DNA from: an uncultured Gemmatimonadales bacterium
GTDB taxonomy: Bacteria > Gemmatimonadota > Gemmatimonadetes > Gemmatimonadales > GWC2-71-9
Length of the DNA: 64,000 bases
Assembly: GCA_963842945.1 (NCBI GenBank)
Contig: CAWJIM010000002.1
Location: 96,001-160,000, forward strand
Direction: 5' to 3'
A program made the translations under genes and the position numbers. The notes beneath the pieces were generated by a model. The model saw only the letters and a program-made list of their open reading frames with translations, was not told where the DNA came from and searched no databases. Within the stretch, counting starts at the first letter, position 1. Each line of letters opens with the position of its first letter. Below, piece after piece: positions 4,829-45,106 of this stretch.

Positions 4829-5348
4829 CGCTGTTTCCCGGGAATTGTTTCAGCCTGTGGAGTCGGATATTTCGGGACCGGTCCGGCGCTGAAGCCCGTC
4901 CACCTCTCCCAGGTGGCGCTCCAGCAAGGGTACGGAAGCTGGCGACATAGGCAGTGAATTGGCGGGCCGCCCCGTCGGCGCGCTCCCGGACCAGCGCCTC
5001 CTCCTGGTGGGCTCGCTCCAGAATCCGCTCCGCTTCGGCCCTGGCCTCCCGCAGCACCAGCTCGGCTTCGCGCTCGGCCTGTTCCCGGCTGTCTACCCGG
5101 AGCTGCTGCGCCGCCACCAGCGCTTCGTTCATGGCCCGTTCCCGGTCCCGGAAGGCCCGCAGCTGTTCCTGCACTCCGCGCAGACGCTCCTCGTGCTGGG
5201 CCCGATCGCGCAACAGCCGCTCCAGCTCCTCCGAGATGGCCAGCTTGAACTCGTCGACCTGCGCCCGGTCGTAGCCTCGAAGGGTGCGGGCAAATTCCTG
5301 AGACCGGACATCGAGAGGCGTCAGGTGGAACGCGTGATCGTCGCTCAT
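4825..5348 (-). CDS. divIVA: DivIVA domain protein (end approximate)
   Basis: [26 protein letters not shown] followed by a coiled coil; next to yggS. Confidence 0.88.
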
Positions 5349-6034
5349 GTCATCCGCTCCCCAAACAGAACGGTTCCCAGCCGGATCATGGTTGCACCCT
5401 CCTCCACCGCGACCTGATAGTCGTCCGGACATGCCCATCGAGAGCTCCGGCAAGCGCGTGCCCGGAGCGCTCCGCCGCATCCCGCAATTCCCGCAGCTGG
5501 CGAAAGGCTCGGCGCTGCTCGCCCATCGTCGGCGCTCAGCGCACTCATGGTCATGAGACCCCGTACCTCGATCCGTTCCAGCGCCCGCAGCTCATCCAGT
5601 AACAAGGGCAGAGACTCCGGCGCCACTCCGCCCTTCTGCGGCTCTCCGGAACAGTTCACCTGGACCAGCACTCGCTGCCTCTGTCCCGGAGCAACGCGGC
5701 GTTCGAGCTCGGCCCCGAGATCGGCGCGGTCGACCGAATGGATCAGAGCAAACCGGCCGGCGGCATGTCGGGCCTTGTTGCGCTGCAGCGTCCCGATCAG
5801 GTGCCAGTCGACCGGCACCTCCGAGGCCTGGTCCTGCTTCTGCAGTGCCTCCTGCACCCGGTTCTCCCCCACGTCCGTGAGGCCGGCATCCACCGCGGCC
5901 AGCACTGCCTCCGCTCCGTGGGTCTTGGTGACCGCCACGATGCGCACCGGGTGCTGCCAGCCTCCTCGCGCCTGGCTCTGTGCCACTGTTTCGCGCACGT
6001 GCGCCAGCCGGGCCGGAAGGCCTGGGAAATCCAT
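5345..6034 (-). CDS. yggS: PLP homeostasis protein YggS family
   Basis: [35 protein letters not shown], and [19 protein letters not shown] across an indel. Confidence 0.92.
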
Positions 6035-6068
6035 AGCCACCTAATTTATTGGGGGATGGGGTGTTATT

Positions 6069-6115
6069 GAAGGTCGGGAAGGTTGGGAAGGACGGGAAAG
6101 GCGGGAAGGTACGGG
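6069..6115. repeat. Tandem ~9-nt GAAGGNCGG array (downstream arm of four-helix-bundle cassette)
   Basis: gaaggtcgg gaaggttgg gaaggacgg gaaaggcgg gaaggtacgg. Confidence 0.85.
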
Positions 6116-6125
6116 GGATGGGAGG

Positions 6126-6512
6126 TCAGGAGGTTAGGGGTGACTCAGGCACCGACTTTTTGGGAAGCAAGGACTTGTAGAGCAGCCACGTCATACCGCC
6201 CGCGCGTTCATGCAAATTATTCAAGCTAGCCCAATCAGAATCCGACAGAATTCGAAGTTCCTTCGCCAGGAGAAGAGTGTACGAAAGCTCTGAAAGCGAC
6301 CCCAAACTGATGTTTAGGTAGCGCCTGAACTCTGCCTTCCCTTTTCTAGCACATCCCTCGGCAATGTTAGCTGCCGCTGAGTGAGCTGCACGCCTGGCCT
6401 GGGAGCTCAATCCAAAACGCTCTTCGGATGGCCAGGACTTTGTTGAATGGTACACGGCCAGACACAAATCATGGCATCTCTGCCAGGCCTTGACCCGCTG
6501 GTATATAGCCAT
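6126..6512 (-). CDS. Four-helix-bundle protein (23S rRNA IVS-protein family)
   Basis: YQRVKAWQ...WPSEERFGLSSQARRAAHSAAANIAEG..RK...EFRRYLNISLGSLSELSYTL; visibly lower GC than the flanks. Confidence 0.9.
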   Translation of the reverse strand: MAIYQRVKAWQRCHDLCLAVYHSTKSWPSEERFGLSSQARRAAHSAAANIAEGCARKGKAEFRRYLNISLGSLSELSYTLLLAKELRILSDSDWASLNNLHERAGGMTWLLYKSLLPKKSVPESPLTS

Positions 6513-6563
6513 CTCCTAAATTAGTCAGAACCGGTGTGTGGTCCCCGACCAATTTCAATCTCA

Positions 6564-6632
6564 CCGTACCTTCCCGCCTCTCTTTCCTTGCTGCATACGG
6601 TCCCGTCCTTCACGTCTTTCCCGCCCTTCCCG
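6564..6632. repeat. Inverted copy of the GAAGGNCGG array (upstream arm)
   Basis: ccgtaccttcccgcct (6564-6579) is the exact reverse complement of 6099-6114; tcccgtccttc (6601-6611) is the reverse complement of 6087-6097. Confidence 0.85.
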
Positions 6633-9010
6633 TCATTCTTCAACCGTATCCCTCCCCCTCACCCTCAACTCCGCCAACGCCGTCCGGAGTGACTGGTTTG
6701 GGGTCAGCTGCATCGCCCGATCCAGGGCTCGCAGCATCTTCTCCTGTTGGCCCCGGGCGCTATAGGCGTAGGTGAGCTGGGTGAACGGAAGCGATAAGGT
6801 GGACGCGATGCTGGCACTGGTGGTCTCCAGTTTGGTCACATCCCCATCGAGCAGATCACCGTAGCGGTAGGTATCCCAGACCAGGCGTTCTGTCGTGGGA
6901 ATGTCCAAAGGGGCCCCGGCAAGGCGCCGAGTATCCAGTGCCGGCGAGGTGGTATCCGGATGACTGGATCGCAGGCTGTAGCCCAGACCCTGCTGCACCA
7001 CGTACTCGCTCAACCCACCGAATTCGCGGCCGGCCGTGATGGCCCAAACGATCGGGCGTCGCCCCACGTTCTGCTGCACGATGCTGAGGGTGAGAATGTC
7101 ATTCGGCAGCAGGAAGGTGTCGGCCTTGAGATTCCGGCTCACAGGACCCAGCGTGCACTCGCTGATCTTGCGGCACCACGTAGCCGCTCATCGCCGATGG
7201 CGATCATCGAGTCGGTCATGGTATGCAGCGGTTGGGTGGGAGGCGGTCTCAGGGCGCCGCGCCAAAGAGCCGGGAGCGCTGCCCGGTCTACCGGGCGAAC
7301 CGGATTGTCCCGCAGCTGGCGCATGTACCAATCGGTGTTCGCCAGCGCCAGGCAGACCACCGTCACATCCTGGCGGACGTTGGCTACTTCCTGAGCCCAC
7401 CAGAGCGGGAACGTGTCGTTGTCGCCGTAGGTGAACAGCACCCCATACGGCGGTACCGTGTTCAGCAGGTCGTAGGCAAAGTCGGCGGCGAGCCGGGCAT
7501 CGGGGCCATGGCGCCGCGAGGCGGCCGTCCAGTTCAGGGCGATCGGAACCAGCGGCGAAGGCCAACGCAGCGGGCGCCCATCGTCGCGCAGTGCCGGCGC
7601 GCGCCCAGATGGACCGCGCGATCACGGCGAGCCCCATCCCGGCCCAGATCCCCCACACGATGAAGCTCACCACGAAGAAGTAGTCCCGCTCCCGCACCTC
7701 GTGAGCGGAGGCGGTCGGGATAACTGTCGAACCAGCGGCCGAAGCCCGGCCTGAAGTTCATGTAGATGACCAGGCCCGATGCCGGTGACCATGAACAGTC
7801 CCAGCAGCAGCCACCACGCCGGCCGGTCGGCCCGCCGCTGGGCCAGCAAGCCGCGAAGGCCGAGCGATGACGAAGACCAGGGTGATCGAGACCTGCAGCC
7901 AGTCTGCCAGCGCCTTGGCCCACTGCCAGGTGAAGTACACGATGTAGTCGCGCGAACTGGATCGCCAGCAGGCCAGGGTGCGGCCCGGGTTGTCCGGGCC
8001 GTGCGGAACCGTGGGATCGTCCAGCGGGGTGCGCGGCGGATACTGCGCCCGGCGTGATCACCGCGCAGCAGCGCGTCGAAGGTGGCGCGGCGCGGCCTCG
8101 TTGATCGGCGGGTTCTGGGCCGACCGGATGATAGAGGTAGAGATAGGGCGTTACGCCGATCGCAGGCGATGAACAGAGTGAGCAGCGCGAAAGTCGCCGC
8201 CCTCCGAGCGCCGGCATAAGCCGGCCGCGGCAAGAAAGCAGAGTCCGCCCAGAAGGATCAACCCGGTGCTGCCCAGCCCGGTGCCGATGAGCAGCGCCCA
8301 GACGCCGGCGACCACGGCGACCTGCGCCCATTCGGCCCGGCGCTGTGCCGGGATCGCGTGCCGGCGCGCTTCGCAGAGTGGCCACCACGAACATCACCAC
8401 CGCCGGACCCGCCAGCAGCGCGAGCAGGTGATTGCCGATCGAGATGCCGGCCAGATACACGATCAGCAGAAGCAGCCGCGGCGCCCGCGTGGTTCCCCGG
8501 TCCCGCCGCCAGATGTGAGCAGCCAGCTCATGGCGGCGATGGTGAACGTGGCGACCGCGTAGACCTCGGTCTCGTTCGAGTTCTGCCAATTGGTGAAGGT
8601 GAAGGCGCCAAGCATGGCCGCCGCAGCGCCACCGCCGAGACGCAGGAGCCGCGCGGTCTCGTCGTCTCAGGCCGGCGGTAATCAGCGCGCGCATCGACTC
8701 GTGGGCGACCAGAAAGAAGCAGCCCGCTGCCGCGAGCGCTCAGCACGGCGCTCAGCAGATTGGTCCGGAACGCGTATTCGCCAATGGGAAGCAGCATCGC
8801 CCAGACATGGGCGATCATGACGAACAGGGGCGTTCCGGGCGGATGCGGGATGCCGAGGGTCTTGGCGGCCGCGATGAACTCGCCGGCATCCCAGAACGTG
8901 ACGGTCGGGGCGAGCGTGAGGAGGTAACACCAGCAACACCAGCCGACACCAGGCGACGCCGTAGGGCGGCCGCGTACGGACTCCGAGCGAGTGCGTTCAG
9001 GACCAGCACT
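6633..9010 (-). CDS. DUF2723 / TMEM260-like (GT117) membrane glycosyltransferase, heavily frameshifted; start approximate
   Basis: [65 protein letters not shown]; paralogous to 46697-49057. Confidence 0.85.
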
Positions 9011-22160: not shown

Positions 22161-22324
22161 ACAGCGTAAGCGGGAACAGCAACAGGTAAGCGGTAAGCGG
22201 GAACTGCCCGGCTCACCCGCTACTCTCAAAAATAACCCCGCCCACTCTTTTTGCTTTTCCCGCTCACCGCTCACGCTTTTGCAGTTACCGCTCACGCTTT
22301 TGCTTCCCGCTCACGCTTTTGCGG

Positions 22325-22340
<16 letters not shown>
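22161..22340. repeat. Inverted arrays of GT(A/G)AGCG / CGCTCAC heptamers
   Basis: gtaagcgg x3 on the left; ccgctcacgctt x4 on the right. Confidence 0.85.
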
Positions 22341-28133: not shown

Positions 28134-28156
28134 GTACAGAGGTGAAGTGCTAAGAA

Positions 28157-28275
28157 CGTGAGCGGGAGTCAAGAGCGTGAGCGGTGAGCGGAGGTCTCCG
28201 GTCGCTGTGGATCAGCTCCGGGATGAGATCCCGTACGCATTCCTCCCGCTCACCGCTCACCCGCTTACCCGCTCT
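28157..28275. repeat. Inverted GTGAGCG / CGCTCAC heptamer hairpin
   Basis: gcgtgagcggtgagcggagg ... cctcccgctcaccgctcacccgcttacccgctc. Confidence 0.82.
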
Positions 28276-35409: not shown

Positions 35410-35690
35410 GTGTATTGATCCGGTTCAGGTTCGCTGCGGCAAAAGTATGCCCAAACAGCCGGTTTGTCACCTCAAGAAGAACCGGAAACCGGATACGAAG
35501 TTCCTGCGTCATGGGTTCTTGGCCGGCGGTCTTTCAGTAGCAGCGGAGTAAGTGCAACGGGCAACAGCGCAGGCGGAACGGGCTTCGGTTCGGAGGCAGG
35601 CTCCCAGGGGAGAGGTGGGCGGTTGTCGCGGAGCCTGCCGGAGAGCCCAGGTCCGTTCCGCCTGCGACAACCGGCGAGCAGCGGTGCGTC

Positions 35691-35806
35691 GGGCGAGCCG
35701 ATTGCCCTTCCGAGGCCGCGTTAGGGCGCGGCGCTGCGTCTATACTAGATCTAGCTTAGTGACGACAGCGCCCTGACTGCGGCCTCGCAGGGCAATCGGC
35801 TCGCCC
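35691..35806. repeat. ~116-bp palindromic dispersed element, copy 1
   Basis: Arms gggcgagccgattgccct / agggcaatcggctcgccc; related copy at 51704-51810. Confidence 0.85.
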
Positions 35807-35830
35807 GTAGCCGACCGTCACCCAGTCGTG

Positions 35831-38431: not shown

Positions 38432-41125
38432 ATGACCGAGCCGCTCGCCCCACAATACAATCCATCTTCCATCGAGTCCGGGCTCTACCGCTGGTGGTCT
38501 GAGCGCGGACTCTTCTCACCCGAGCGGCATGCACCGGGGTCGGGCGAGCCCTACGTGATCATGATGCCGCCACCCAACGTGACCGCGGTGCTGCACATGG
38601 GTCACGGCCTCAACAACACGGTGCAGGATGTGCTCATCCGGTTCGAGCGCATGCGCGGCCGGCGGGCCCTGTGGCTGCCGGGAACCGACCACGCCGGCAT
38701 CGCCACCCAGAACGTGGTCGAGCGTCTGCTCGCCGAGCAGGGCCTTACTCGGTTCGACCTGGGCCGGGATGCGTTCGTGGAGCGGGTCTGGGAGCACGTG
38801 CGGGTTACCGGCGCCGCAATTCTCGATCAGCTCAAGGCCATCGGCTGCTCTGCCGACTGGTCCCGGACCTACTTCACCCTGGACGAGGGGCTCTCCCGCG
38901 CGGTGCGGGAGGTGTTCGTTCGGCTTTACGAGCAGGGGCTGGTCTATCGCGGCCATTACATCATCAACTGGTGTCCCCGCTGCCTCACCGCTCTCTCGAA
39001 TGAAGAGGCGGAAAAGGAGGAAGTGGACGGCCAGCTCTGGCATCTTCGCTACCCTCTCGCCGACGGCAGCGGCCACCTTACCGTCGCCACCACCCGTCCC
39101 GAGACGATGCTGGGCGACACCGCCGTCGCGGTTCACCCGGAGGACGAACGGTACCGGAACCTCATCGGCCGAGACGTTCGCCTGCCGCTGGTGGACCGCC
39201 TCATCCCCGTCATTGCCGATGACGCGGTGGACCCCGAGTTTCGGCTCCGGTGCCGTGAAGGTCACCCCGGCACACGATCCGGCTCGACTTCGAGATCGGG
39301 CGCCGGCACCAGCTCCCCAGCATCGACATCATGACCCCGGAGGCCCGAATCAGCCTGGCGGCGCCGCCGCGCTTTCAGGGGCTGGACCGGTACGAGGCCC
39401 GCCGCCGGGTGGTGGCGGAGTTCGAGGCAGCCGGGCTGCTGGAGCGGGTCGAACAGCACCGCCATGCGGTGGGACATTGCTACCGTTGCGATACCGTGAT
39501 CGAGCCCCGGCTCTCCGATCAGTGGTTCGTGCGGATGGAGCCATCTGGCTCGGCCGGCGCTCGCGGCATACCGCGACGGAACCCTCCGCTTCGTGCCCGA
39601 GCGCCGGGGCGATGACTACGCCGCCTGGCTGGAAGGCATTCGCGACTGGTGCATCTCCCGCCAGCTCTGGTGGGGACATCGAATACCGGTCTGGTACTGC
39701 GAGGCGCCCGGCTGTGGCAAGACCAGCGTCAGCCGTAGCGATCTTGAGGTGTGTCCCTCGTGCGGCGGCCCGGCCCGGCAGGATGAGGACGTACTGGACA
39801 CCTGGTTCTCCTCCTGGCTGGTGCCCTTCTCCAGCCTGGGCTGGCCCGACCGCACTGCAGACCTGGAGACGTTCTATCCCGGGCACACGATGGTATCGGC
39901 CCCGGAGATTCTCTTCTTCTGGGTGGCCCGGATGATCATGTCCGGGTTGCACTTCATGGGAGAGGTGCCGTACACCGACATCTACCTGCATGGCACCGTG
40001 CGGGACACGCAGCACCGCAAGATGTCCAAGTCGCTGGGCAACGGCATCGATCCACTGGAGGTGGTTGAGCGCTACGGCGCGGACGCGCTTCGCTATTCGC
40101 TGATCTCCGGCATGTCGGTCGGCACCGATGTGATTCTCGATCCCAACGATCTGGAGGCATCGTTTGCCGCCGGCCGCAACTTTGCCAACAAGCTGTGGAA
40201 TGCGGGCCGCTTCATTCTGTCCAATCTCGACGGCACTCCCCGCCCGCTCGCTGGAGCCGGACGCCAACGCGGTGAGACCCGACGAGCTCACCCTGGCGGA
40301 CCGCTGGATCATCGCCCGCTGCGATGCCACCGTTCGGGAGGCGACCGACGCCTACCAGCGCTTCCGGCTGAACGACGCCGCCGGAGCGATCTATCACTTC
40401 ATCTGGAGCGACCTGGCCGACTGGTACATCGAGCAGGTGAAGCCGCGCCTGTATGGCGATGTTCCCGGCGGCGATGTTGCTCGAGCGGTGCTGTCCCAGA
40501 CCTTCGACGTGGCCCTCCGGCTGCTGCACCCGGTGATGCCGTTCATCACCGAGGCGCTGTGGCGCCGCTTCCCCGGCCGGACCGAAGACGCCTCCATCTC
40601 CATCGCTCCGTGGCCTCGGCCCGATTCCCGGGCCCAGGGACCGGACGCACTCGCTCGATTTCGGGCTGGTGCAGGAGCTGGTGAGCGGCATCCGCGTCAT
40701 CCGGGCCGAATATGGAGTGCAGCCGGGGCAGGCGGTAAGCGCGGTGGTCACTGGAGAAAACCAGGCGAACCTGGCCGCGCTGCGGGAGGAGCGGGCAACC
40801 ATCGTTCGGCTGGCCAAGCTTTCCGATCTTTCCTTCGAGGAGCCAACCGAGCGCGTCGGCGGCCACGCCGTGCTCTCCGACGGCACGCGCAGTGTTCGTG
40901 CCGCTGGGCGAGGCCATCGACGTCGGCCGGGAGTGCAGCCGGCTGAGCTCGGAGGTGGACCGCCTGATCCGGCTGGTGGAATCGCAGGAGAAGAAGCTGG
41001 GCAACGAGCAGTTCGTCTCCCGCGCACCGACGGAGGTGGTGGAGCGGGAGCGGCAGAAGCTCACCACCTGGAAGGAACAGCGCGAGGTGCTGCTGAAGAA
41101 GCGGGAGCTGCTGGGGTGTGGGTGA
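38432..41125 (+). CDS. valS: Valyl-tRNA synthetase (indels)
   Basis: [49 protein letters not shown]-terminal coiled coil. Confidence 0.96.
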
Positions 41126-41176
41126 GGCGGGGCAGCGAGGCGGCGGGGCAGCGGGAAAGTCGCTTGACCTGGAGTA

Positions 41177-42500
41177 GTGCATCGCGTCGGCCAACGTCCT
41201 GCTACCCCGCTGCCCCGCTGCCCGGCTGTTAGCCGCCCTGCTGCCCATCTGCCCCGCTGCCCTGCTCTCCTGCGCCCGCATTGAGCCACCTCCCGGGGGA
41301 CCGCCGGACCGGGCTCCGCCCCGCCTGATCGCTACCAAGCCCGACTCGTTTGCCGTCCTTCGCGCATTCAAGGGGAATGCCGAGTTCGAGTTCGATGAGG
41401 TGATCTCCGAGGGCGGAGCGCCCAATCGCGGCGAGGGAACCGGTGGCCTGGAGAAACTGATCGTCCTGTCGCCCACCACCGAGTTTCCCGACGTGAGCTG
41501 GAAGCGCGATCGGATCACGGTGAAACCCAAGGGAGGCTGGCGTCCCAACCGGGTCTACCGGGTGCAGCTCCTTCCCGGTGTGACCGACCTCAGAAACAAC
41601 CGGAGCAACGAGGGAGCGGTGCTGACCTTCACCACCGGGGCGCCCCGGCCCCAGAACACGCTCAAGGGCACCGTCGTAGACTGGACCACCAGCCGCCCGG
41701 CCGCCAATGCCCTGATCGTCGCGACGCTGCTTCCCCGATAGCTTGGTCTATCGTGGAGTGGCCGACTCCAGCGGGCGCTTCTCCGTCGGGCCCGCTTCCG
41801 GCCGGGGATTACCTCGTTACCGGCGTGCTGGATCAGAATCAGAATCTGCGGCAGGATGGCCGGGAGGCCTACGGCAGCGGCCGCCTGGCCCGCGGAAAGT
41901 CCGATGTGGGACAGTTGTGGGCCTTCGTTCACGACACCAATCCGCCCCGCATTCAGACCGTCACGGCGGACGACAGCGTATCCGCAACCGTTGCCTTTAC
42001 CCAGATGCTCGACCCTCGTCAGCGGCTCACTCCCAAGGACGCGCGGCTCCGTCTCCTGCCGGACTCAACCCCGGTGACTATTACGTCGCTCCTGCCCAAG
42101 CCGGTGGACGACAGCCTGCACGGACGGGCGGCCGCGCCGGACACCACGGCCGCTGACACCCTTGAGACCCGCGACTCGCTGGCTCCGGGGAAAAAGCCGG
42201 CGCGCGGCCCGACACCGCGCCCTGAGCGGAACGAGGTCCTGACCGGCCGGCCGCCGCTGTTCGATCGTCTGACGCTGAGGGTTCCTCGCCCCTGGGCACC
42301 GGGCTCGCGGCTGGTGCTCGAAATCCGGGGGATTCGCAACGTCACTGGGGTAGCGAGGTACGGCCGTGGGTGTGGTCGCCGTCCCGGAGCGGCCCAAGGC
42401 CACTCCTCAGGACACGACCAAGAAGCGCGCGGTGCGCGACTCGACCCAGAAGCCGCCAGCTCGCCCCCCAGCTCAGCCAGCCCCAGCTCGGCCGAAATAG
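41177..42500 (+). CDS. Ig-like (Big_5) domain lipoprotein (indels; start approximate)
   Basis: LLSCARIEPPPGGPPDRAPP, FEFDEVISE, GVTDLRNN, FTTG. Confidence 0.72.
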
Positions 42501-44430: not shown

Positions 44431-45012
44431 ATGACCATGCGGATTGCCGTGGCCATATCGGGCCGCGGCAGCAACCTCGATGCGCTGCTGCACGCCCTCG
44501 GGCCCGGCGCACCGGCGGAGATCGCTCTGGTGCTGAGCGACCGCTCGGCTCCGGGACTCGAATTAGCGAGAGCGCGGCAGATTCCGGCGGTCGTGTTGAC
44601 TGACTCGGGCGACGGAGAGGCGTGGCTCGCGCTGCTCGGCCGGCACCAGATAGAGTTGCTGGTGCTCGCGGGCTACCTCAGGTTGGTCCCCTTTGTCGGT
44701 GATCGCCGCGTATCGGGAACGCATCATCAATATCCACCCTGCGCTGCTGCCGGACTTCGGAGGAAAGGGCATGTACGGCCGCAGGGTGCATCAGGCGGTG
44801 CTCGACAGCGGAGCGCGAGAGACCGGCGCCACCGTCCACCTGGTCGACGAGGAGTACGACCGGGGAGCGGTGCTGGCGCAGGCGCGAGTGCCGGTCCTCC
44901 CGGGGGACACGCCGGACCTGCTGGCACAGCGCGTCCTCGAGGTTGAGCATCGCCTGCTTCCCGCGGTGGTGCTCGCGGCGGCCCGGGCGGGACGGGTGGT
45001 GGGTTTGAATGA
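44431..45012 (+). CDS. purN: Phosphoribosylglycinamide formyltransferase (runs in frame into purH)
   Basis: ISGRGSNL, LAGYL, INIHPALLP.FGG.GMYG, GATVHLV.EEYD.G. Confidence 0.92.
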
Positions 45013-45106
45013 GTCACGAGTCGCGAGTCGAGTCCGAGGGAGACCGCCTGGTCAGGCGTCTGATGCCCTAAACTCGCGACTCGTGACTCGCGACTCGCGA
45101 CTGACT
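45011..45106. repeat. Inverted GAGTC(A/G)C / G(C/T)GACTC heptamer hairpin
   Basis: gagtcacgagtcgcgagt (45011-45028) is the reverse complement of actcgcgactcgtgactc (45072-45089). Confidence 0.85.

Follow-up and report, generated by a model that had tools for sequence, protein, structure and literature searches.

In Coxiella burnetii, the intervening sequence (IVS) combines a gene of the PF05635 family with a 28-bp stem, heptamer repeats and an RNase III cut (PMC4990558, in part). The homology of PF05635 proteins to Avd of the DGRs has been remarked upon (PMC10053308, in part). In Geobacter, paired arrays of short words were interpreted as IHF/HU regulator sites (PMC2700814, in part), and a link to an S23p or four-helix gene appears neither in the searchable text of that paper nor in the 12 of its 19 supplements that were searched, in which PDF tables may be unreadable. 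GGGAATC heptamers form intergenic arrays in Xanthomonas, with 70-75 convergent inverted pairs (PMC4692102, in part), and TAACTGA heptamers form intergenic arrays in Beggiatoaceae (PMC4679880, in part); the origin of both is left unexplained in these accounts. A term search of their available text found no mention of Xcc0516 in the former or of four-helix, S23 or intervening in the latter. A full-text search that covered few subscription papers found no report tying PF05635/TIGR02436/S23p genes to tandem-repeat arms outside rRNA.

The present analysis concerns a PF05635 gene in a stretch of 64,000 nucleotides (the window), taken from contig C2 of a genome of 4.3 Mb that is 87% complete and whose nearest homologue loci with a name come from Gemmatimonadales. 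Comparison among loci shows that such genes and the inverted repeat arms around them behave as one unit bounded by the arm edges; as judged from the sequences, in related soil bacteria this unit is found flipped and decayed, and it has often diverged far beyond the DNA on either side. The window cassette is a real feature and one of a widespread, apparently undescribed class related to rRNA IVSs.

Structure, predicted protein and promoter-like elements of the window cassette

The window cassette and its host genes all read on the minus strand and are arranged as follows:

5345 to 6034, minus strand: host gene yggS (PLP-binding protein; TIGR00044), with a frameshift near its 3' end
6032 to 6071, minus strand: yggS promoter-like element, consisting of TTCAAT (6071-6066), 17 nt, TAAATT (6048-6043), 8 nt and ATG (6034-6032)
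6069 to 6114, minus strand: downstream arm, complementary to the upstream one, C-rich on the minus strand and made up of five imperfect 9-nt units
6126 to 6512, minus strand: PF05635/TIGR02436 four-helix-bundle gene, 128 aa, GC 0.53, predicted fold of an Xcc0516 pentamer subunit
6513 to 6563, minus strand: loop-internal spacer, containing the -10-like hexamer TAATTT (6523-6518)
6564 to 6638, minus strand: upstream arm, purine-rich on the minus strand, imperfect tandem 9-nt units of the type GGGAAGGAC
6633 to 8939, minus strand: DUF2723/TMEM260-like host gene (PF11028), split by frameshifts into several pieces; the 5' limit is approximate

The upstream arm of the cassette starts inside the stop codon of the DUF2723/TMEM260-like gene, whose ORF piece ends at 6633, and the last three bases of the downstream arm are overlapped by TTCAAT, the -35-like hexamer of the yggS element, which marks the outer border. 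The protein matches PF05635 with E 1.2e-31 and 109.5 bits (curated cut-off 33.8) and TIGR02436 with E 3.9e-30 and 104.3 bits (curated cut-off 24). The two arrays have a period of 9 nt and lie mutually inverted on either side of the gene, and the 16-bp match (6099-6114/6564-6579) and 11-bp match (6087-6097/6601-6611) between them are exact, neither extending further. A perfect inverted match of at least 16 bp around a random 390-nt interval arose in 3 of 20,000 draws from the window's genome. In the predicted fold of the 626-nt minus-strand RNA, a terminal stem encloses the ORF in its loop (z -3.5; 0 of 20 shuffles as good); folded alone, the arms are predicted to form 61 pairs, with a longest unbroken helix of 17. 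No DDE or HUH transposase was found in the element, in which the PF05635 gene is the sole ORF, and an Rfam scan at the cassette gave no match. The original prediction had described a low-GC 128-aa gene between DUF2723 and yggS, a 9-nt array with its inverted copy, and a long RNA stem with the ORF in the loop. The gene (GC 0.53, compared with 0.67 for the whole window) and the array agree with what was found, and the stem is supported as a predicted one.

Many housekeeping genes between 791 and 14054 of the window are broken by frameshifts. From their translations, we take the split genes to be ileS, purine nucleoside phosphorylase, DUF2723, folP, ftsH and tilS. This pattern is typical of an uncorrected long-read assembly, and the frameshift at the 3' end of yggS is probably an assembly error.

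An alignment-based AF2 model of the protein shows four long helices (pLDDT 97); prediction from the single sequence was poor (pLDDT 56). The AF2 model superimposes on Xcc0516 (2GSC) with TM 0.88 and rmsd 1.0 and so has the Xcc0516-type four-helix fold. It also matches BT_0352 (2RLD; TM 0.70-0.76) and Avd chains of DGRs (4DWL, 8UBx; TM 0.71-0.74, at an identity of only 9-11%), in keeping with the structural kinship of the family to Avd that had been proposed for this gene. By analogy with the five chains of 2GSC, and in line with PMC4990558 (in part), the window protein would be a homopentamer of the Xcc0516/Avd type. We infer that it takes part in the life of the cassette; no catalytic motif or partner enzyme was identified for it.

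The hexamer TAATTT (6523-6518) ends five bases ahead of the ATG of the window gene. Over 123 cassettes, TAnnnT starting at -11 to -16 gave 60 counts, and other positions gave at most 5 each. The hexamer is likely the gene's own near-leaderless promoter, situated inside the loop, although a sigma-70 scan of the cassette returned no site. An RNA-library contig agrees with 147 nt of the ORF without a mismatch, too weak a sign to establish expression; the sequencing runs compared contained at most 17% of the words, and their contigs do not span the cassette and reveal no RNA ends. At yggS starts, TA[AC]ATT stands 8 nt before the ATG in all 89 examined. Since yggS has this conserved promoter-like motif of its own, it is likely independent of read-through transcription. 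The start of yggS is likely ATG 6034 rather than GTG 6040, and the invariance of the motif 8 nt from the ATG points to a leaderless transcript. Among 113 loci with orientable neighbors, 17 cassettes are sense in an operon, 48 are antisense, 33 lie between convergent genes and 15 between divergent ones, so that most are antisense to, or between, transcription units.

Repeat arms across the gene family and hairpins without a gene

The 157 loci collected for comparison are mostly top-scoring matches from the same genus and order (the best 150 of 273); these loci, and the pairs and genomes compared below, are kin and not independent. PF05635 is present in 82 of 103 genomes of the genus; like the other counts out of 103, this one includes an unpublished genome (G047) on which no claim rests alone. 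The window genome contains seven PF05635 matches. That other family members carry inverted arms, which had been proposed as a check, holds for all five paralogues read in this genome, each with a different word of 7, 8 or 9 nt, and for most of the best-scoring loci with enough flank: the arms beat the 95th percentile of a same-orientation control at 126/147 loci and the 99th at 70/147. The window cassette scored 19.5 against a cut-off of 17.85. A cross-locus null, which is inflated by shared units, was beaten at the 95th percentile by 120/147 and at the 99th by 20/147. Loci gathered GTDB-wide passed the same cut-off in 52 of 77 scored cases from several phyla, including Gemmatimonadota (9/9, partly the same loci), Acidobacteriota (36/51) and Bacteroidota (3/8). 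At four loci, the arms are built of longer composite units (~13 nt in L208 and L216, longer in L215 and L222).

Repeat period and word track protein clades on a FastTree tree of 144 rows built from a short alignment. All six members of the window protein's clade have 9-mers, at five different sites, which we take to be DUF2723-yggS, a lipase/hydrolase gap, gltS-fusA, typA-cation transporter and DUF445-ffh. The left arm of one cassette pairs with the right arm of another at a different site in 22 of 23 pairs with at least 80% protein identity, in 84 of 140 pairs at 70-80%, and in 13 of 3,633 pairs below 40%. Same-site scores were set aside because they are inflated by host flanks. As far as sequence comparison can tell, the cross-site pairing shows co-inheritance of gene and arms; recognition of the arms by the protein is a separate matter.

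The repeats extend well beyond the genes. A strict scan, which gives a lower bound, found at least 204 arrays of period 7-11 in the window genome, of which 131 match exactly a cassette word from other genomes (shuffled mean 20). Where arrays are paired, the G-rich arm comes first in 89 cases and the C-rich arm in one, which is the polarity of the cassettes; 73 arrays are unpaired. Five of the seven abundant array families have a cognate gene in the genome. The interiors of 62 gene-less hairpins in the window genome are all unique, and a search of these 62 for ORF remnants found arm-like matches only. A GTATG-type motif behind 9-mer arms is weak (7/58, compared with a 2% background).

Within the window, the gene-less hairpins at 28155-28275, 41125-41272 and 45011-45102 consist of 7- and 8-nt units, and such hairpins or single arms (also 22259-22339) share their words with the arms of the paralogues located on contigs C19, C20 and C22. 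The window cassette had been suggested as the source of these empty hairpins. The general part of this suggestion stands, in that gene-less hairpins are related to such cassettes through shared units and through the deletion stub of relative L089 described below; the specific part does not, since the hairpins in the window use the 7- or 8-nt units of paralogue arms and not the window 9-mer. Adjacent GC-rich long hairpins at 35568-35666 and 35690-35807 lack tandem words and are a different repeat class. Some gene-less hairpins (L031, L044, L052 and, in G000, C19 near 574355 and 696022) contain REP-like palindromes, as if a second element used the hairpins as landing sites.

The protein clade of the window gene was found in 9 of 103 genus genomes. 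Genomes with at least ten 9-mer array matches make up 8 of the 9 that have this clade and 21 of the 93 in which it was not found, and some of the latter 21 are 95-99% complete. Since arrays are plentiful where no gene of the clade was found, the protein is not needed for their persistence; the arrays outlast the gene or have another source.

Occupancy, inversion and divergence at host sites

A comparison of the DUF2723-yggS junction among relatives had been proposed with the original prediction. Of the 80 genomes that have both flanking genes, two carry the full cassette (that of the window and L109) and 78 lack the gene at this site. The close sisters L096 and L108 retain eroded remnants, and gene-less hairpins of that 9-mer type stand at the junction in L031, L040, L089 and L095. 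The other branch, of 49 genomes, has at most single chance-level 9-mer matches. L089 preserves both arms, the promoter-like stretch, the ATG and a 12-codon stub resembling the C-terminal tail of the family, a state best read from its sequence as an internal deletion of the cassette. Clean empty sites look like derived deletions because the DUF reading frame runs into the yggS promoter, and for this reason a target duplication cannot be judged there. No undisturbed ancestral empty site was found among the junction genomes, and no target-site duplication was seen at close pairs. A proposal that the 3' end of DUF2723 had grown complementary to the yggS promoter was rejected, its scores being no higher than in other genomes.

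Two further features of the junction were observed. A repeat word lies inside the last DUF2723 codons of L040, L089 and L095 and alters the C-terminal residues. Other inserts occupy the same junction in L050, L078, L032 and L054, including a different long hairpin in L050 and unrelated genes of 0.4-0.9 kb, suggesting that the gap upstream of the yggS promoter is a general insertion spot.

Inversion was assessed after inversion-aware clustering of 150 loci into 68 sites, 29 of them multi-member. This clustering replaced an inversion-blind one (82 sites), and the joining of L017 to the DUF2723-yggS site was discarded as spurious, the flank of L017 being FtsH. With a flip counted only where both flanks are swapped, flips were found at 8 of the 29 multi-member sites, in pairs that include L228/L244 (97% protein identity) and L208/L216 (95%). 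Cassettes occupy gaps bounded by a host stop codon, start codon or promoter, and a single site may be found with the cassette present, reduced to a stub, gene-less, eroded or flipped.

Divergence within cassettes often exceeds that of their surroundings. The window gene and the L109 gene at the shared site are 78% identical in amino acids with a saturated pS of 0.78; in the same two genomes, pS is 0.32 for yggS and 0.48 for DUF, and a PF05635-family gene at another site is 93% identical with pS 0.34. The corresponding pN of 0.04 indicates strong purifying selection on the PF05635-family gene. Among same-site pairs with flanks at least 84% identical, which are not independent, 23/40 have pS of at least 0.7 and 8/40 have pS below 0.4. 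The borders of divergence are sharp in L177/L183: identity is 95-100% in the host DNA as far as the host start codon, falls to 40-78% across arm, spacer, gene and arm, and then recovers beyond. Four other pairs, including that of the window, show the same profile, and two control pairs remain near 90% throughout. Arm units change together with the gene in same-site pairs. The window and L109 genes are each other's closest relatives on the tree (support 96), and their spacers are alignable, so the same site in another lineage may have supplied an incoming allele, or evolution within the loop may have been fast.

Competing explanations and related systems

RNase III was not found in the window genome (TIGR02191), in 103 genus genomes (PF00636; 0/46 of high quality) or in 183 genomes of eight related families (f1-f8). 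The same search found it in 16/17 genomes from four further families of this phylum and in 8/14 controls. The enzyme seems to be absent throughout the Gemmatimonadales-side lineage; the available text of PMC3071783 calls RNase III highly conserved and contains nothing on a loss there. The 23S rRNA of the window genome is 2,955 nt long and has no ORF insert. The cassette, built like an IVS, thus differs from one in location, lying between PF11028 and yggS rather than in rRNA, and in the prospect of RNase III excision, with no such domain found in genome, genus or family. A search for the reverse transcriptase (RT) domain PF00078 in the 87% complete window genome gave no match. RT domains occur in 21/103 genus genomes; G009 and G081 have 19 and 13 RT matches on short contigs, and most of the genus has none.

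In the explanation to which we give slightly more than even weight, the cassette is one copy of a small unit made up of an arm, a likely promoter of its own, the four-helix gene and a mirror arm. Such units are found inverted or lost, and apparently replaced whole, at set positions between host genes; this most likely happens on DNA and is likely aided by the protein through binding to its own repeat. The gene would be transcribed from inside the loop, and its product, as an Xcc0516/Avd-type pentamer, would bind the cognate 7-9-nt array as a single strand. Pentamer binding might then direct host recombination or repair, so that the cassette is copied into or over an existing hairpin site. Flips would result from recombination between arms, and gene-less hairpins would be leftovers of deletion. 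The outcome would be a homing-like cycle in which cassettes arrive, decay and arrive again, and this would account for purifying selection on a gene that is dispensable. On this evidence, the cassette is likely a DNA-level mobile unit and not an RNA-excised insert, and the proposal of a mobile or exchangeable hairpin cassette without a transposase has held up: PF05635 is its sole ORF, arms accompany most of the best-scoring loci, and its site is gene-less in nearly all relatives. A broader claim is advanced tentatively, as possible though short of probable: PF05635 proteins may be the active factor of undescribed homing cassettes, free of transposase and nuclease, in which every pentamer would recognize a tandem word of its own, 7-9 nt long, and cause host enzymes to insert or write over the DNA between the arms.

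The same observations can be read with the protein in a passive role, as a host factor that binds RNA or single-stranded DNA at repeat hairpins, acts on mRNA ends, termination or stability, and autoregulates through its own arms, the swaps and flips being ordinary homologous recombination after gene transfer. The strong purifying selection, the cognate genes for most abundant array families, the position of arms beside stop codons and promoters, the enrichment of 9-mer arrays in genomes with the clade, and the interpretation of the Geobacter arrays as regulator sites (PMC2700814, in part) all fit such a regulator. We nevertheless consider it rather unlikely, given a gene absent at the junction in 78/80 genomes and a clade present in only 9/103, arrays that thrive without the gene, and swap borders at arm edges that do not run into host genes. 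Less probable still is an Avd-like retro-mobility, in which the pentamer would hold the cassette RNA and recruit an RT in trans, with cDNA taking the place of the loop already there, as in DGR retrohoming. The replacement of whole blocks at fixed sites is reminiscent of homing, and the fold and homology to Avd (PMC10053308, in part) point the same way, but the identity to Avd is very low, RT was not found in the 87% complete window genome and is much rarer in the genus (21/103) than PF05635 (82/103), and the gene's own transcript would likely lack the upstream arm, though arms change with the gene.

Two remaining explanations receive scarcely any weight. The original prediction raised an IVS-like cassette inside an mRNA; on this reading, RNase III would cut the stem and so release the ORF from the transcript of the operon. 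The predicted stem, the gene family and the stem-enclosed layout with heptamers and an RNase III cut in Coxiella (PMC4990558, in part) recommend it. This part of the prediction fails on the missing RNase III (0/1, 0/103 and 0/183, compared with 16/17 in four other families), the promoter-like motif of yggS, the few cassettes (17/113) that are sense in an operon, and the flips, and for the Gemmatimonadales-side lineage it is largely refuted. An old fixed insertion whose loop merely mutates fast, without exchange, is just as improbable. The sister position of the window and L109 genes and their alignable spacers are in its favor, and because these two are still closest relatives, fast loop evolution or same-site allele transfer could mimic replacement. 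It is at odds with the bimodal divergence (8/40 close same-site pairs are clock-like though also inside loops), with related cassettes at unrelated sites, and with arm units that change along with the gene.

A programmable replacement system bounded by arms and free of a transposase would open a new way for genomes to change, and it could also account for the spread of rRNA IVSs. If the broader claim about PF05635 proteins is true, rRNA IVSs would be one case of landing, and the surplus of paired heptamer-to-nonamer arrays that has long been noted in bacteria would be explained. With paralogues of at least five repeat words in one genome, protein-repeat specificity and mobility are directly testable. 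The lineage is also a natural control: cassettes are abundant where RNase III was not found, which means that textbook IVS processing is not their general purpose.

REP/REPIN-RAYT systems and MITEs share with the cassettes a gene between inverted repeats and numerous hairpins, spread over the genome, that are built of this repeat and contain no gene. The cassettes differ from them in having no HUH or DDE transposase, arms that are tandem arrays of a clade-specific word, gene-less interiors that are unique and not copies, and no target duplication seen. DGR Avd, Xcc0516 and BT_0352 have a fold in common with the window protein. DGRs, however, have a linked reverse transcriptase and a template/variable repeat pair with adenine-specific differences, whereas PF00078 was found neither at the locus nor elsewhere in the 87% complete window genome, no such repeat pair is evident at the locus, and local scans, one spanning 1,500 nt, showed no long direct repeat near the gene. 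With the 23S rRNA IVS of Coxiella burnetii and its S23p (PMC4990558, in part), the cassette shares PF05635, a terminal stem whose loop contains the ORF, short tandem arm repeats and the lack of a known mobility enzyme. Unlike that IVS, it lies between protein genes in a lineage where RNase III was not found; in contrast to rRNA IVSs, it likely has its own promoter and is under purifying selection, and its class flips and is apparently exchanged. The arrays of Xanthomonas and Beggiatoaceae have been treated as G-quadruplex or regulatory motifs (PMC4692102 and PMC4679880, each in part). The Gmet_I1-I3 elements of Geobacter metallireducens (PMC2700814, in part) consist, as here, of paired heptamer, octamer and nonamer arrays on opposite strands with variable spacing, and the class 2 consensus from Geobacter, when reverse-complemented, gives the 9-mer of the clade that is sister to that of the window protein. 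The cassettes link the unexplained and very common PF05635 family, a cellular cousin of DGR Avd, to the equally unexplained paired arrays described independently for Geobacter and Xanthomonas.
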